From positions 672,001 to 736,000 of the forward strand of contig CAXXQS010000002.1 in assembly GCA_963674735.2 (NCBI GenBank): a DNA stretch of 64,000 nt, written 5' to 3'. The notes under the pieces are model-generated. The model searched no databases, had not been told where the DNA came from, and saw nothing but the letters and a program-made list of their open reading frames with translations. Numbering within the stretch: the stretch's first letter is position 1; each line of letters starts with the position of its first letter. Below, in pieces: positions 56,474 through 63,218 of this stretch. A program made the position numbers and the translations under genes. Origin of the DNA: Myxococcota bacterium. Its GTDB lineage: Bacteria > Myxococcota_A > SURF-8.

Positions 56474-57610
56474 CTATTTCACATCTTCGATGCAGGCATT
56501 ATCCACGCAGATGTAATCAGGCCGACAATCCGAGTTGGGTCCACAGCTGCCCCGGCAGTTGCTATCGTCGAAACAAGAGAAATTGCCCGGGCAAGGGGCC
56601 GGATCTTCACGGGGATTGGGCACACAGCCCGCAAAATTGACGCAATTCTGACCTTCCCATAAGAGATACCCTGAAATACAGGCATCCTGGGGGCAGATCA
56701 CTTCAGCCAGCCACGTTCCCGAAGAACAGCGCTTGTAACCCTGGCCGTGACAGATCTTATCGCTATGATCGTACAACGCGGCCGGATCGCCTTCGGCTAG
56801 ATCCACATGATCGACACAGGTAAAGGAATCGGGGGCGCAATAACGACCGTTATCGTCCCAGTCGAGCTGACACGCGTGGCCGGGCAGACAATCATCCGCC
56901 GTGCTGCAGGGATATCCATCCTGATGATTGGGACGGTCAAGCTCCCAGGCGTCATCATCCGCATCGCCATCCGGTGGCGTATCGCTATCCACGGTATCCG
57001 CATCGCCGTCCGGCGGACCATCTTCCAGGCAGTAATCATCTTGTTCGGGATCGGGGTTGCTGACACAACCCTCGCTACAGGTATTGCGCGGCAATTCAGA
57101 GATCACATAACCGCAATTGGGGTAGTTGCAATCGAATAGTTGCTTGCATTGATAAAGCTGGCTTCCCTTGCACACCATCACATCATGGCTAACCTGACCA
57201 TCTCGACAAAAAACTTGCGAAACGAAATCGCCACACTGTGGGTCGAGGTTATCTCCCGTGCAACCTTCCGCCTCGACGTCACTCTCCGTGGATTCCGCAC
57301 CCTCCACGTCATCGTCGCCGATTTCTTCCCCGTCGCCGTCTATCGTCGGCTCCTCATCCACATCGCCATCCGTCGGCAACAGATCCTGATCCGCATCCCC
57401 ATCCGTCTCGTCGCCATCGGACGGAAGCGGATCATCGCCATCGATAATGCGTTTACATTCCTGATAAACACACTTGAAACCCGCCCCACAATCCGAATCT
57501 TTCAGGCATTCTTGATACGGATCGGCATCGTCGCCGCCTTTACAGGCAACCAACAAGCTCATGAACACAAAGACCATCAGCACGGTCCGGATCAATTCGA
57601 TCATACGCAT
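56474..57610 (-). CDS. Cys-rich lipoprotein with DGD acidic linkers
   Basis: AAGGA SD before MRMIEL; lipobox LVAC; CxxDxDC motifs. Confidence 0.75.
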   Translation of the reverse strand: MRMIELIRTVLMVFVFMSLLVACKGGDDADPYQECLKDSDCGAGFKCVYQECKRIIDGDDPLPSDGDETDGDADQDLLPTDGDVDEEPTIDGDGEEIGDDDVEGAESTESDVEAEGCTGDNLDPQCGDFVSQVFCRDGQVSHDVMVCKGSQLYQCKQLFDCNYPNCGYVISELPRNTCSEGCVSNPDPEQDDYCLEDGPPDGDADTVDSDTPPDGDADDDAWELDRPNHQDGYPCSTADDCLPGHACQLDWDDNGRYCAPDSFTCVDHVDLAEGDPAALYDHSDKICHGQGYKRCSSGTWLAEVICPQDACISGYLLWEGQNCVNFAGCVPNPREDPAPCPGNFSCFDDSNCRGSCGPNSDCRPDYICVDNACIEDVK

Positions 57611-57726
57611 CGGACATCCTTCTTTCACAACAGGTGGTCTGGCGAACCCTACCGTAATCGTAGAATTATACCACATTGTGCGCAGGGTGCAAAAGGAGAC
57701 GTCAGGTTGAAGAAAGAATCGAGGGT

Positions 57727-58911
57727 TCAGGGGCGCACGGCCGGACTTTCGATCGGCGCGGGAGTGGAATAACCCAGCCATTTTCGACACCGATCGCGCC
57801 AGGCGCTGAAGGCCGGCCACTCGTCGGCTCTTTCAAGGCTGCGCCGCCGTGATCCATGGACATCATAGGGATTACGGATGCGCCCGCTGGAGGTTTGCAG
57901 TTGATAGTGAAGGTGCGGGGCCGTCGAACGCCCGGTATTGCCGACACGTCCGATTAGAGTCCCCGCCTTCAATCGGCGTCCCGATTGGACCTCTTTAGCC
58001 ACACTGTCGAGATGCAAAAAGAGTGCATCAAGCCCTTTATTGGGAACACGCACCTTGATATAGCGCCCGTTGTAGCGCTGGATACGACGGGAAACCTGCA
58101 ACACTTCGGCATCCCAAGGCAAACGTACCGGCGTTCCCACCGGGGCTTTGAAATCGATCCCATCGTGGCGCGGTCGACGATCCCGCAGCAGAGAAGTTAC
58201 CTGTTCAAACTCTTCAAGCGGAGAATTGATCAGTTCCGGTTGAACGCTAACACCTTCCCCGTCATAGTGACGCCCGAAAGCCTTGCCCGCCGCTTTGTAA
58301 TAGTAGGCTTCAAACAACCGATCGTGGCGTGAACTCTCGTAAAGCGCGGCCAATATGCGCAAACCATCGGTGGACTCGTCGGTATGTTCCCAAACCAACG
58401 AATAGCGGTCTCCCGGGCGCAAATCCCGTTTGAAATCAAGCTCAAAGAAAAATAGGCGTTTAAAATGCGCCGCCAATTGCTCCGCCAATAAACGCTCTGC
58501 CGGTTGCTCGGAATCCACATGCTGCGCAAAACTGGTATAAAGGGAATGGGTCAACAAGCCCGTCATCACTTGGGGCAACGTGGCCGGTAGCGCCGGTCCC
58601 TCGCTCCCATCCTCCAAACCCGTCCAAGGAGGAAGATCCGGGACATCCGCAGCGGCGACCTTGGGTACCGCTTCGGCATCGGGCATTTCCGGATTCACCG
58701 GAGCGGCTTTATCCTCCACGACCGAATCGGAAAGCACCGTGTCGTCCACTGCCGGTTCCTTCGAAACATCAGAAGAGTCGGATGCTCCAAAAATCCACGC
58801 GGCAAAAACCAAGCCCACAACAGCCCCCGCCACACAGGCAAGCACCCGCGTGATTTTATTTCGACGACGGAATCCGGGTAACTCAAGGCTGGCTGGTGAA
58901 CGCGTTCGCAA
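57727..58911 (-). CDS. M23 family metallopeptidase (peptidoglycan DD-endopeptidase)
   Basis: HDGIDF, YNG, FLHL, GNTGRSTAPHLHY; N-terminal TM; TTG start after GGAG is tentative (ORF extends to 58977). Confidence 0.9.
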   Translation of the reverse strand: MRTRSPASLELPGFRRRNKITRVLACVAGAVVGLVFAAWIFGASDSSDVSKEPAVDDTVLSDSVVEDKAAPVNPEMPDAEAVPKVAAADVPDLPPWTGLEDGSEGPALPATLPQVMTGLLTHSLYTSFAQHVDSEQPAERLLAEQLAAHFKRLFFFELDFKRDLRPGDRYSLVWEHTDESTDGLRILAALYESSRHDRLFEAYYYKAAGKAFGRHYDGEGVSVQPELINSPLEEFEQVTSLLRDRRPRHDGIDFKAPVGTPVRLPWDAEVLQVSRRIQRYNGRYIKVRVPNKGLDALFLHLDSVAKEVQSGRRLKAGTLIGRVGNTGRSTAPHLHYQLQTSSGRIRNPYDVHGSRRRSLERADEWPAFSAWRDRCRKWLGYSTPAPIESPAVRP

Positions 58912-59602: not shown

Positions 59603-61003
59603 TCAGGACAAAGGTCCTCCGGCGGGATCGGCAAAAACGCCGCTATCCGGTTTTTTCAGTTCACCTGACACATAATCCAATTCATCGAAGAACTGACGTT
59701 CATATTCCGCCGGCAGGTCTCGGGCCAGTCGAATGGCATCGGCCAACTCCGGTTGATGGCAAAGCGCGATCAGGTCGTCGTATAAGCGAACTTTTTCAGC
59801 CGACCCCAAAAGAGGAAAGAGATAGCCGTTAAGTTCGTCCAATGGCTTCCCCGCAATCAAAGGCTGCAAACGTTCCCACTCCTGCGACCCCGGCACCGGG
59901 GCCAATGGAGAAAAAATGGGCCGCGCACCCAGCATCACCATCGTAATGTAGGTACGAAACAGAAAACGGATCGTCTCGTCATCGTATGCAAATAATGAGC
60001 AGGAATGAAAACGGCCGACTTTGAACCCCACCTCGCGCAACAATCGTAACGTACGCACCGGCGCGCCGAAACGGTAAGGCTTTTTGAAGCGTTTCAACAT
60101 GATGGGGTCGGATGTCTCAAAGGGGATGGTCATCTGGTTCACTCCGGCCTTGAGCATTTTCTCGGCAATAGACGAGGTAAGCCGATTCGATTGAATCCCC
60201 ATATTGAAACTCATACGAACATCCGTTCCGGCCGCGATCATCAGGTCGAGAAACTGGTCGAGCGCGTCGGGAAACAGCATCACGTTGGGATCCCAGTTGG
60301 CAAACTGCCGGATACCAAAGCGTTTCCGAACCGCCAACAGATAATAGAGCACTTGTTTGGGTTTGAACCGCAGGGTGGGCTTCCAGCGATGATTGATACA
60401 AAAACTACATCGGTTAGAGCATCCTGTAGCCAGATTGAACAATCCGATTTCCGGCGGAGATTCGTAAAGCGACAGATCTCCGACTTCCCATTCGGCCGCC
60501 TCGTTTTTACCCTCGACGATGTCATCGGCCAGACTCGTGGCGGCATGCTCGGGCATCAATGTCGGATAAATTCCGCCGAGACGCACCGGGATGTCCGGAA
60601 AGACTTCCTTGCATACGGCGATGGCGTCGTGGGCGGTTTCCCAGTTGAAGGTCAGGCAGGCGGTTACCCATATTTCATCCGGACGCTCGCCGTCGTTCAG
60701 GGCTTTGCGAAGCTCGGACAGAGGACGCCCCAGCAGATAGGAAGGTCGCCATTCGCTGTCGACCCGATTGTTGCCCGAACGCTTGCGGCCGTACTCGGGA
60801 ACATGTGCGGGCCACTTGGATAAATACCAGCTTTTATAATGATCGTATTCCATCAGGTCGATCAGGCGCACCGAGTGCCCCTGTTTCTTCAACCAGGTTC
60901 CCAGTTTGAGTAACCCGTAGGGATAAGGCTCGGGATACTGCAGCAGTTGCCAGCGACTGACCACCTGAACCGGTGGATTGACGAAGACGATATGCTTGCC
61001 CAC
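59603..61003 (-). CDS. Cobalamin-binding-domain radical SAM protein
   Basis: PYGLLKLGTWLK…GHSVRLID and LGGIYPTL B12 domain; CSNRCSFC motif; GTG start after CAGGAGA. Confidence 0.88.
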   Translation of the reverse strand: MGKHIVFVNPPVQVVSRWQLLQYPEPYPYGLLKLGTWLKKQGHSVRLIDLMEYDHYKSWYLSKWPAHVPEYGRKRSGNNRVDSEWRPSYLLGRPLSELRKALNDGERPDEIWVTACLTFNWETAHDAIAVCKEVFPDIPVRLGGIYPTLMPEHAATSLADDIVEGKNEAAEWEVGDLSLYESPPEIGLFNLATGCSNRCSFCINHRWKPTLRFKPKQVLYYLLAVRKRFGIRQFANWDPNVMLFPDALDQFLDLMIAAGTDVRMSFNMGIQSNRLTSSIAEKMLKAGVNQMTIPFETSDPIMLKRFKKPYRFGAPVRTLRLLREVGFKVGRFHSCSLFAYDDETIRFLFRTYITMVMLGARPIFSPLAPVPGSQEWERLQPLIAGKPLDELNGYLFPLLGSAEKVRLYDDLIALCHQPELADAIRLARDLPAEYERQFFDELDYVSGELKKPDSGVFADPAGGPLS

Positions 61004-61016
61004 CTGAATCTCCTGT

Positions 61017-62048
61017 TTAGGGCGGATCAACCGGTACGTAGTACAGCGTGCCACGGGTCGAGTCACCTTGTACCAGCGATAAACGGCTCATACCCATTCG
61101 CCGCGAACCACACAGGTTGCGCCAACCATTCAAGGCTGATTTCCACTCCGATGATTCAGTGTACGCCTCAAGGCGTTCCGGCGTCAAACCATTGAGCGGA
61201 GCATTGAAGTCGAGTTCGGCACCGCTCGCAATTTCGACATATCCATCCGGTCGAAAACGTTGGATTATAACCGCGTCTCTCAAAACATTATCTTCGCACG
61301 CATGCGTTATTTCATCCATCATAGCCCAGTCTGGATAACGTGATTTCAACGAAACCAACGGCCAACGGCTGATCCGTTCGTATGTTTTAACGCGCAGTAA
61401 ACCCTGCTCGCAAAAGTCAGCCCCAATGAGATGCAGCCTCGACAAAGCGGCGGAATCGCCAAGATCGGGCGTAGTCGACAACAGGCGGTTCAACACAAAT
61501 TCCTTTTCTCGACGACACCCCGGAGGGAATTGCCAGTAAAGCTTGAACCGGCGCGCCTGCGGTCCGGCCTCCAGACCGAATAAGAGTTGAGGTGTAACAC
61601 CGGGGTCGGCCGCACGCAGAAGTGGTTCAGCCACCACCGACACCTCTGATCCGAAAGCGGCCAACATCACACGAAGCGTGGTCAAATCCAACGCCGCCGC
61701 CCCTCGCGCAAAGGCCGGAAAACTAATGGAAAAACGGTAAGGAAAAACGTCATCGCCGCGCCAGGCAAACGAATACTCCAAGCAAAACGCATAACGCGTC
61801 ATTACGCGTTCAAGGTGAGCGCAGAGATGCCGCTCCATTTTCTTGTAAGGAACAGCCACGCGACCGGAGTTGAGTCCGGCCATGTCCCGCATCGCCGTGA
61901 AATGAGCCTCCACCGACCGCAGGTCCAGGAGACGACGGTCTTGGTAGCAAGCCGGATACACCTCGCTTCTTCCCCGATCGAGATCGGGACAACCGGGAGA
62001 TGCCCGGCAGAAGACACAACGGGCCGTTGGAAGATTCGTCTTTGTCAT
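61017..62048 (-). CDS. PatF/LynF/TruF-like (ABBA-fold) prenyltransferase homolog with N-terminal Cys motif
   Basis: LEYS…D…YRF, LLFGLE…FKLY and LIGADF…G…VKTY match PatF-family blocks as recalled; no search run. Confidence 0.6.
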   Translation of the reverse strand: MTKTNLPTARCVFCRASPGCPDLDRGRSEVYPACYQDRRLLDLRSVEAHFTAMRDMAGLNSGRVAVPYKKMERHLCAHLERVMTRYAFCLEYSFAWRGDDVFPYRFSISFPAFARGAAALDLTTLRVMLAAFGSEVSVVAEPLLRAADPGVTPQLLFGLEAGPQARRFKLYWQFPPGCRREKEFVLNRLLSTTPDLGDSAALSRLHLIGADFCEQGLLRVKTYERISRWPLVSLKSRYPDWAMMDEITHACEDNVLRDAVIIQRFRPDGYVEIASGAELDFNAPLNGLTPERLEAYTESSEWKSALNGWRNLCGSRRMGMSRLSLVQGDSTRGTLYYVPVDPP

Positions 62049-62054
62049 GCGCCC

Positions 62055-62083
62055 ATGGTAACGCGGGTAAGGGGTAACGTCAA
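62055..62083 (-). promoter_or_regulatory. sigma70-like promoter giving a probable leaderless mRNA for the prenyltransferase-like gene
   Basis: TTGACG-17 nt-TACCAT, then 6 nt to ATG; no SD. Confidence 0.55.
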
Positions 62084-62180
62084 TGATTGGCCCGACGGAA
62101 CTTGAGCCAAACCGAGGATCTGTGTTAATGTCGCTCAAACAGGTTATCAATCACCGTCACTCCGCGTGGAAAGGACCGTC

Positions 62181-63218
62181 ATGGACGAACAGCTTGCAGA
62201 TATTCTGGCCGATTTAGTCATGGCCCACACCGATGCCGAGAGCGTGGATGCCTCCTCGATCTCGCTTGTACCCGTTGATCCGATGTTCCACACCTATGCC
62301 GTCGGCGACTACTGGGTCAAGGTCATGAAAGCCGACCCGAAAAATCCGGGCTGGACTCCGCTGCACCGCGAGCAGTTCGCCTTGACAACCATCATCAAAC
62401 TGAACAAACGAACGGTCGAATACAAGCTACACATGCCGGTAACGGAACCCATCCACCTGGAGCCGGTGCCGGAAAAGCTGAAAAAGCCTTGCTTGATTGT
62501 CAAAAAAATCACCGGGCAGCCCCTCATCAAGACCCTCGGCACACCATCCGCCCTCGACTCGGCCGCCATCAAGAAACTGGGCGAACGCATCGGCTGCTAC
62601 ATGGCCCGAGTGCACGCGACTCAAATCAAAGGCGCCGGGCTACTGAGCCCTGAAATGAAAGGGGTCCATCCCGGTCCGTGGCAAAAATATTTCGCGGCCG
62701 TCTCCACCGCACAATGGAAACATTTGCAAGGATCGGGAGTCGTGGATGACAGTCTCCTCAATCGTTTGGCGAATCTGACCAACGATAAAATGAACTTGCT
62801 TATCGGTGAACCGGTGACCTTGATCCACAACGACTACACCTTCAGCAATATTTGGGAAGATCCGGCCGACAACAGCCTAACGGGCATTCTTAATTTCGCC
62901 CAATCCGGCGCCGGTTCGCCTCTGATCGATATCGCCAGCTTCTATCTGCACTGCTTCGATGCCAACTTGTGGAAAGAAGTCAAGGCCGGATATGAGATCA
63001 TCCGCTCCATGCCACCCAACACGGAAGTCAAAATGGCTTTCTATTCAAGCATTTTCGGAATGCGCGCAGCTTGGTTCTACCACCAGCGCGGAGATGAGGT
63101 CAGCAAAAATTACTATTTGAACCGGGCACTTAGCGAAGCTGCTAAAGTCGATAAGAGCTTTCAGACCGAGGCGTCACGTTACGGCGGCTCCAATAAGCCG
63201 TCGTATGCCGCAGATTAG
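62181..63218 (+). CDS. Aminoglycoside phosphotransferase (APH/choline kinase) family protein
   Basis: WVK, MARVH, LIHNDYTFSNI, GSPLIDIA; AAAGGA SD. Confidence 0.8.
   Translation: MDEQLADILADLVMAHTDAESVDASSISLVPVDPMFHTYAVGDYWVKVMKADPKNPGWTPLHREQFALTTIIKLNKRTVEYKLHMPVTEPIHLEPVPEKLKKPCLIVKKITGQPLIKTLGTPSALDSAAIKKLGERIGCYMARVHATQIKGAGLLSPEMKGVHPGPWQKYFAAVSTAQWKHLQGSGVVDDSLLNRLANLTNDKMNLLIGEPVTLIHNDYTFSNIWEDPADNSLTGILNFAQSGAGSPLIDIASFYLHCFDANLWKEVKAGYEIIRSMPPNTEVKMAFYSSIFGMRAAWFYHQRGDEVSKNYYLNRALSEAAKVDKSFQTEASRYGGSNKPSYAAD

Follow-up and report, generated by a model that had tools for sequence, protein, structure and literature searches.

The 64,000-nucleotide stretch of DNA analyzed here (the window; positions 672,001 to 736,000 of the forward strand of contig CAXXQS010000002.1, assembly GCA_963674735.2, from a Myxococcota bacterium) carries an open reading frame (ORF), 61017-62048, that encodes a soluble homolog of the ABBA, or prenyltransferase (PT)-barrel, enzymes and represents a previously unannotated subfamily of them. 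Our computational analysis further shows that this gene is functionally linked to one specific subfamily among the class-B radical S-adenosylmethionine (rSAM) enzymes, as an operon partner, through co-occurrence in genomes, and through natural fusions. We propose that the two proteins form a two-enzyme tailoring module that would combine prenyl transfer with a radical step, a chemistry that we regard as probable on balance.

The window protein has no Pfam or NCBIfam match at E<=0.1, a single-sequence search of the PDB gave nothing meaningful (best E 1.6), and a word-index search of 5.8 billion proteins retrieved the protein itself alone. Relatives came from an exhaustive HMMER search of 1.84 billion representatives: 85 at E<=1e-3, including 11 at E<=1e-30. 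Of the 85, 64 were aligned and used for both an AlphaFold2 model and a family profile. The model has a predicted local distance difference test score (pLDDT) of 93.9 and a predicted template modeling score (pTM) of 0.92, and DSSP resolves it into five consecutive alpha-alpha-beta-beta repeats whose ten strands make up a PT barrel. Foldseek returned 99 PDB matches at E<=1e-3, with probability 1.00 to many ABBA structures, and every one of the matches printed is a prenyltransferase of the ABBA/DMATS kind. The lead matches are LimF (2.4e-9), PagF, PirF, KgpF, and DciF, followed by the bacterial indole prenyltransferases CymD, IptA, and PriB and then by other ABBA enzymes, at 9-18% identity to the solved enzymes. 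The family profile points in the same direction: searched against PDB sequences it finds two LynF/TruF/PatF-family structures (4.5e-5 and 1.4e-4), and 13 of the 16 sequences that it matches are ABBA prenyltransferases. Among the 64 family members, weak matches to curated models are found for Pfam Trp_DMAT (PF11991; five members, best 0.003), NCBIfam DMATS (TIGR03429; six members, best 5.4e-5), and the LynF/TruF/PatF model TIGR04445 (one member, 0.0048).

Twenty-two columns of the 64-sequence alignment are invariant or nearly so, and all of them fall on the ten predicted strands, which account for 95 of the 343 residues. Conserved columns occur at i/i+2 spacing (E91/S93, R105/S107, R167/K169/Y171, K221/Y223, R322/S324), a periodicity that would be expected of residues facing the barrel lumen. 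They comprise basic residues (R105, R167, K169, K221, R264, and R322), tyrosines (Y108, Y171, Y223, Y336, and Y337) and, further, E91, D211, D280, H206, and some Ser and Gly. The review PMC7973389 describes how, in ABBA enzymes, basic residues neutralize the diphosphate while tyrosines hydrogen-bond it and shield the cation, and the conserved Arg/Lys/Tyr set, as it appears in the alignment, fits that description of the diphosphate site. In the HMMER alignment E91, R105, RxKLY, and LHLxGxDF pair with equivalent blocks of solved cyanobactin enzymes. The near-invariant E91 pairs with a Glu of one solved LynF/TruF/PatF-family enzyme, 9vtd, and the corresponding Glu of cyanobactin and DMATS enzymes acts on their acceptor.

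In front of the barrel stands a four-cysteine (Cys4) motif that probably forms a small metal-binding knuckle. Of the 64 family members, 37 contain the pattern C..C.{3,12}C.{6,20}C, with the general form C-x2-C-x5-6-C-x12-13-C, and it is kept between the rSAM and ABBA parts of three fusion proteins described below (P0018, P0053, and P0073). The region is modeled confidently (pLDDT 85-94 over residues 1-40); its single hint among PDB sequences is rubredoxin, which at E 4.3 is not significant. We know of no ABBA enzyme with an N-terminal motif of this kind.

Two groups of known enzymes invite comparison. The cyanobactin prenyltransferases (PagF, PirF, LimF, KgpF, and DciF) share with the window family a ten-stranded PT barrel of about 300 amino acids, and they provide its best Foldseek matches (2.4e-9 to 4e-8, template modeling (TM) scores 0.50-0.64) as well as its best profile matches. 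Common blocks are E-x-S on strand 1, R-F on strand 2, G-x-D...R-x-K-L-Y, and L-H-L-x-G-x-D-F...K-L-Y. On the other hand, identity is 11-18%, TIGR04445 is unmatched by the window protein, and cyanobactin enzymes have a Glu before the conserved LY of strand 6 where the window family has a Lys. The window family also has the extra Cys4 motif, it occurs in Myxococcota and in metagenome-assembled genomes (MAGs) of Desulfobacterota type and not in cyanobacteria, and its locus shows a B12-rSAM partner instead of a PatA/PatG/PatE-like context (an observation on the locus, as the genome was not searched with PatA/G/E models). The bacterial DMATS-type enzymes (CymD, IptA, PriB, and 5-DMATS of the SCO7467 type) likewise have the ABBA fold, with Foldseek scores (4.6e-8 to 5e-7, TM about 0.51-0.57) that are no more than about 1.5 orders of magnitude away from those of the cyanobactin enzymes. 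The K-x-Y strand motifs of IptA align with those of the family, IptA also has a Lys before the strand-6 LY, and the all-basic diphosphate site, taken together with the review PMC7973389, suggests that metal independence may be common to both groups. The DMATS-type barrel is longer, at 350-460 amino acids against about 300; no curated DMATS model matches the window protein, and the window family is set apart by its Cys4 N-terminus and its rSAM partner or fusion.

We read this as a new ABBA subfamily, and as neither a cyanobactin-type nor a DMATS-type member, because no curated model matches the protein, because a Lys precedes the strand-6 LY, and because of the N-terminal Cys4 motif. A preliminary description of this DNA had named the ORF product a cyanobactin-type prenyltransferase homolog on the strength of three blocks that parallel those of PatF, LynF, and PagF, with modeling as an ABBA barrel as the check. 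The five-repeat model and its Foldseek matches to PagF and its relatives bear out the barrel, and the blocks are present in the translation and are paired by HMMER with two solved LynF/TruF/PatF-family enzymes. ABBA homology therefore stands, and the qualifier "cyanobactin-type" is an overstatement for a protein with no curated-model match.

The partner protein matches Pfam Radical_SAM (PF04055) at 1.1e-14, with 55.3 bits against a cut-off of 29.5, and its CxxxCxxC motif (C195/C199/C202) is invariant in nine of nine sequences. Its AlphaFold2 model (pLDDT 85.4) has TsrM (2.1e-14), AprD4, MgmA, OxsB, and CysS as best Foldseek matches, which makes the predicted architecture that of class B. Like these enzymes (TsrM, MgmA, CysS, OxsB, and AprD4 with its B12 domain), it would join an N-terminal Rossmann-type B12 domain to an rSAM barrel with CxxxCxxC; unlike them, it reaches no NCBIfam cut-off, the best model being BchE at 48 bits against 481, and it pairs or fuses with an ABBA barrel. 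To our knowledge no other class-B rSAM enzyme is paired or fused with such a barrel. With motifs such as NWDPNV and KPY as its defining features, the partner forms what reads as a subfamily of its own within the class-B enzymes.

The preliminary description had pointed to recurrence in other genomes as a sign that the two genes belong together, and the pair does recur. Eighteen strong family loci were collected (hidden Markov model (HMM) score above 190), comprising the window, relatives within the phylum, MAG contigs, and one metagenome contig; a locus search with the 11 closest sequences gave five loci, and a metagenome scan gave one locus only. Three weaker matches (L029-L031), none of which has an rSAM gene within 1.5 kb, were left out. 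At 13 of the 18 loci an orthologous rSAM gene (31-57% identical) adjoins the ABBA gene on the same strand, mostly downstream of it and separated by a few bases or joined by overlapping stop and start codons, with the order reversed at L039. At one of the 18 (G003) a related B12-rSAM gene is adjacent and convergent; it lies downstream of the ABBA gene and encodes 833 amino acids. The pairing extends over at least five families of the phylum and over Desulfobacterales-type and metagenome contigs, which amounts to roughly nine independent lineages, since several loci share a genus or a study.

The two genes also occur together at the level of whole genomes. Of 401 phylum genomes, 12 carry the ABBA gene at E below 1e-50 (15 at E<=1e-5) and nine carry the partner rSAM at E below 1e-140, all nine being within the 12; the module is rare in the phylum. 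The genome of the window itself holds a second, diverged cassette at C2:74.5-77.0 kb (L011:7522-9985), with 22% identity for the ABBA protein and 33.6% for the rSAM protein. Near this second cassette are a divergent HlyD-type gene, a thioesterase, and a PMT_2 glycosyltransferase. In an all-against-all comparison of 14 neighborhoods, no gene other than these two is common to more than three of them, shadow ORFs aside. In one genome, G043, the partner rSAM is present a second time, on a different contig (L042:3519-6872), inside a 1118-codon open frame whose C-terminal portion of about 263 amino acids matches neither the ABBA profile nor Pfam, and which could represent either a different fused domain or an over-long frame (70% guanine-cytosine (GC) content).

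Natural fusions also link the two proteins. Four long proteins occur among the 85 relatives, and three of them (P0018, P0053, and P0073) are rSAM-ABBA fusions in which N-terminal B12-binding and Radical_SAM domains are followed by the Cys4 motif and the ABBA barrel. The rSAM half is 51% identical to the window rSAM in P0018 and 35% identical in P0073. In P0053 the barrel is fused to a different B12-rSAM subfamily, a relative of which is encoded in the genome of the window at C1:30264-31802. That relative is one of two convergent B12-rSAM genes beside a Cache-GGDEF gene (C1:28815-31802; L040:8815-11802) with no ABBA gene nearby; the other shares 51% identity with an accessory rSAM from the G118 island described below. 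We found no publication on a prenyltransferase of ABBA or cyanobactin type that is paired with, or fused to, a B12 rSAM, subscription papers and supplements lying outside the search.

The features of the window cassette are collected in Table 1. Both start codons were placed by alignment with homologs. The longest listed frame of the ABBA-like ORF, 61017..62150(-), would encode 377 amino acids from a TTG, and the N-termini of the ten closest homologs align to the Met at ATG 62048 instead; the rSAM frame is listed from an upstream GTG at 61066, and eight orthologs align instead from GTG 61003. Reading of the junction, with AGGAG in the spacer, agrees with the close same-strand spacing first reported for the two genes. 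The ORF had also been credited with a promoter of its own, a claim that is not sustained, promoter-like matches being at chance level (three sites against 2.6 +/- 1.5 in shuffles); were the match real, transcripts of the ABBA gene would have little or no leader. Terminator-like matches number eight against 6.0 +/- 2.5 expected from shuffles.

Other genes lie around the cassette. The divergent APH-type kinase gene of the preliminary description is present (PF01636), and an ATG 15 nucleotides downstream of its listed start, preceded by GAAAGGA, may be the true start. It encodes a phosphotransferase of the APH/choline-kinase fold that is not kept beside homologous cassettes and is thus probably unrelated to this one. 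A DtxR-type regulator and an M23 peptidase are found further downstream on the minus strand, and LarC is found upstream; no homologs of APH, DtxR, M23, or LarC occur in the homologous loci screened with window proteins (5, 4, and 13 loci). The idea that the kinase is a third enzyme of the system was rejected on this ground. At 56474-57820(-) the window also encodes a 448-amino-acid protein that is rich in Asp and Cys and has an N-terminal hydrophobic segment, no Pfam family, and a weak "late nodulin" match (0.019); similar secreted-looking proteins are encoded elsewhere in the same genome, for instance at C1:31963-34122.

Table 1. Features of the ABBA-rSAM cassette and its surroundings (window coordinates)
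Feature	Position	Strand	Remarks
ABBA (PT-barrel) prenyltransferase-like gene	61017..62048	-	343 amino acids; the window's copy of the unannotated family
N-terminal four-Cys motif, C11-x2-C14-x5-C20-x13-C34	61947..62018	-	In front of the barrel
Class-B (B12-binding-domain) radical SAM gene	59603..61003	-	466 amino acids; conserved partner of the ABBA gene
Spacer between the ABBA and rSAM genes, with Shine-Dalgarno AGGAG	61004..61016	-	13 nucleotides; read directly: TAA ACAGGAGATTCAG GTG
APH-family kinase gene	62166-63218	+	Divergent from the cassette; PF01636 APH, 1.7e-11
Sigma-70-like hexamers, TTGACG-17-TACCAT	62055..62083	-	-10-like TACCAT ends 7 nucleotides before ATG 62048; chance-level match
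Terminator-like hairpin and T-run, 3' end of rSAM gene	59605..59618	-	Chance-level match

In the tailoring module that we propose, the barrel would bind an isoprenoid diphosphate, dimethylallyl diphosphate (DMAPP) or geranyl diphosphate (GPP), through the six basic residues and five tyrosines named above, ionize it to an allylic cation, and alkylate a nucleophile that the conserved E91 positions. The partner rSAM would perform a radical step on the same molecule, most probably the cobalamin-mediated C-methylation of an unactivated carbon, and the order of the two steps could be reversed. Most characterized class-B rSAM enzymes are methyltransferases, AprD4, OxsB, and BchE being exceptions, and by this analogy methylation is the most probable assignment for the partner rather than an established one. 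Structure prediction of a complex of the two proteins scored 0.01 against a mark of 0.32, which counts neither for nor against binding.

The substrate would be encoded outside the cassette. We slightly favor a small metabolite, aromatic or amino-acid-like, over a ribosomal peptide, since the module travels alone, with no precursor, protease, or leader-binding gene, and since transport or efflux genes stand beside it at three loci. In G003 a MatE efflux gene ends four nucleotides before the ABBA gene on the same strand (L009:6030-8636); the HlyD gene accompanies the second cassette of the genome of the window, and an MFS/POT transporter lies beside the ABBA copy of G183. On a Desulfobacterales MAG contig (L016:349-2444), the convergent neighbor of a family member that lacks the Cys4 N-terminus is a class-I SAM methyltransferase gene and not an rSAM gene, a single case that suggests a methylation theme. 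The genes examined around the pair (about 56.5-64 kb of the window and 734-750 kb of contig C2) include no annotated subtilisin-type protease and no recognizable precursor peptide, in agreement with the original view that the pair lies outside any cyanobactin cluster. None of these clues from gene context is decisive as to the substrate.

Several observations weigh against this proposal. The B12-binding domain (PF02310) of the window rSAM scores 4.1e-7 and 30.3 bits, just below the cut-off of 32.1, and reaches 41.1 bits in fusion P0018; AprD4 has such a domain without using cobalamin. The non-methylating AprD4, OxsB, and BchE-type enzymes are among the best matches of the rSAM. An adjacent B12-rSAM gene is missing at four of the 18 loci (G004, G183, G229, and the 2.4-kb contig L016), and a partner rSAM at E<=1e-60 is absent from the whole of genomes G183 and G229, so that the ABBA enzyme can apparently work without it. 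It should be noted that related genomes are kin, and hence our counts overstate the independence of the loci. Finally, some of the evidence favors a peptide substrate: the best profile matches are peptide prenyltransferases, the barrel of about 300 amino acids is of their size, and SPASM-type domains, which are typical of peptide maturases, occur in the islands of three genomes.

These last points belong to a different, possible but doubtful scenario, in which the module acts on a ribosomally made and post-translationally modified peptide (RiPP): the ABBA enzyme would prenylate a side chain (Tyr, Trp, His, Ser, Thr, or Arg) in a trans-encoded peptide or protein, and the B12-rSAM would C-methylate it in the manner of PoyC. 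Besides the LynF/TruF/PatF-family profile matches and the cyanobactin enzymes at the top of the Foldseek results, the support for it comes from G118, G313, and G148, where the pair lies within rSAM-rich islands (L035:1861-16882, L036:2412-12642, and L038:89-7765). Each island is characterized by a protein of 1011-1050 amino acids with three radical-SAM stretches (rSAM/SPASM-type and B12-rSAM) together with two to four further genes for B12-rSAM enzymes. For the accessory rSAM proteins no NCBIfam model scores above its cut-off, and some of these proteins weakly match RiPP C-methyltransferase models. Against a peptide substrate, the 14 neighborhoods show no precursor-like ORF, protease, or leader-recognition gene conserved beside the pair, and the flanks of the window cassette leave merely 117 nucleotides upstream and 124 nucleotides downstream. 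The four intergenic stretches inspected in the three islands contain no precursor-peptide ORF and no short ORF with a coding-type GC pattern, a result confined to those stretches, as no systematic genome-wide scan for RiPP precursors was run. In addition, the curated LynF/TruF/PatF model is unmatched by the window protein, and the Lys that replaces the Glu of the cyanobactin "E-LY" strand is shared with the small-molecule enzyme IptA.

A more speculative form of the two-enzyme proposal, to which we give a rather low probability, is that the pair constitutes one bifunctional catalyst. Radical C-methylation or cyclization would then take place on a prenyl group that the PT barrel still binds or has just delivered, giving rise, under anoxic conditions, to prenylated metabolites with methyl branches or rearrangements or to non-canonical prenyl donors. 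The Cys4 knuckle could serve here as a docking or electron-relay element.

It is unlikely, in our estimation, that the ABBA protein works chiefly as an adaptor that presents an isoprenoid diphosphate to the rSAM, which would methylate or rearrange an unactivated prenyl carbon to give a non-canonical (for example C6 or C11) unit that is subsequently transferred or released. The fusions, which put both domains in one polypeptide, and the self-contained nature of the module are consistent with such a role, as is the conservation pattern, in which all residues are of the diphosphate-binding kind and no conserved acceptor pocket is recognizable beyond E91. The near-invariance of E91 and its pairing with the Glu of 9vtd, however, argue for a real acceptor, and the retention of the ABBA gene without its partner in G183 and G229 also speaks against an adaptor. 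The methylated prenyl donors known to us arise through the action of class-I SAM methyltransferases on the alkene, and we know of no precedent that needs a radical enzyme.

That the adjacency is incidental, the ORF representing a relic of ABBA fold or some unrelated enzyme, with the rSAM belonging to another pathway, is very improbable: the separation of the two genes by 3.4 Mb in G004 (from the same family as the genome of the window), the missing neighbor at four loci, and the absence of a verdict from complex prediction are outweighed by pairing at 13 of 18 loci across families and contig types, co-occurrence in nine of nine genomes, three independent fusion architectures involving two different B12-rSAM subfamilies, and the joint divergence of both partners of the second cassette.

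ABBA prenyltransferases and cobalamin-dependent rSAM enzymes are valued as late-stage tools for making C-C bonds, and they are normally accessory genes in large, recognizable clusters. In the present case the pair is minimal, recurs, is sometimes fused, and is recognized by no curated family model. If the substrate turned out to be a common metabolite or a conventionally modified peptide, the result would be a useful but ordinary family annotation. If the proteins are active as proposed, they would represent a new soluble prenyltransferase subfamily with a metal-binding N-terminus and a new B12-rSAM subfamily with a clear functional partner, and two genes, or one natural fusion, would give entry to a prenylation-plus-radical-alkylation reaction and to a new metabolite of uncultured Myxococcota and Desulfobacterota-type bacteria.

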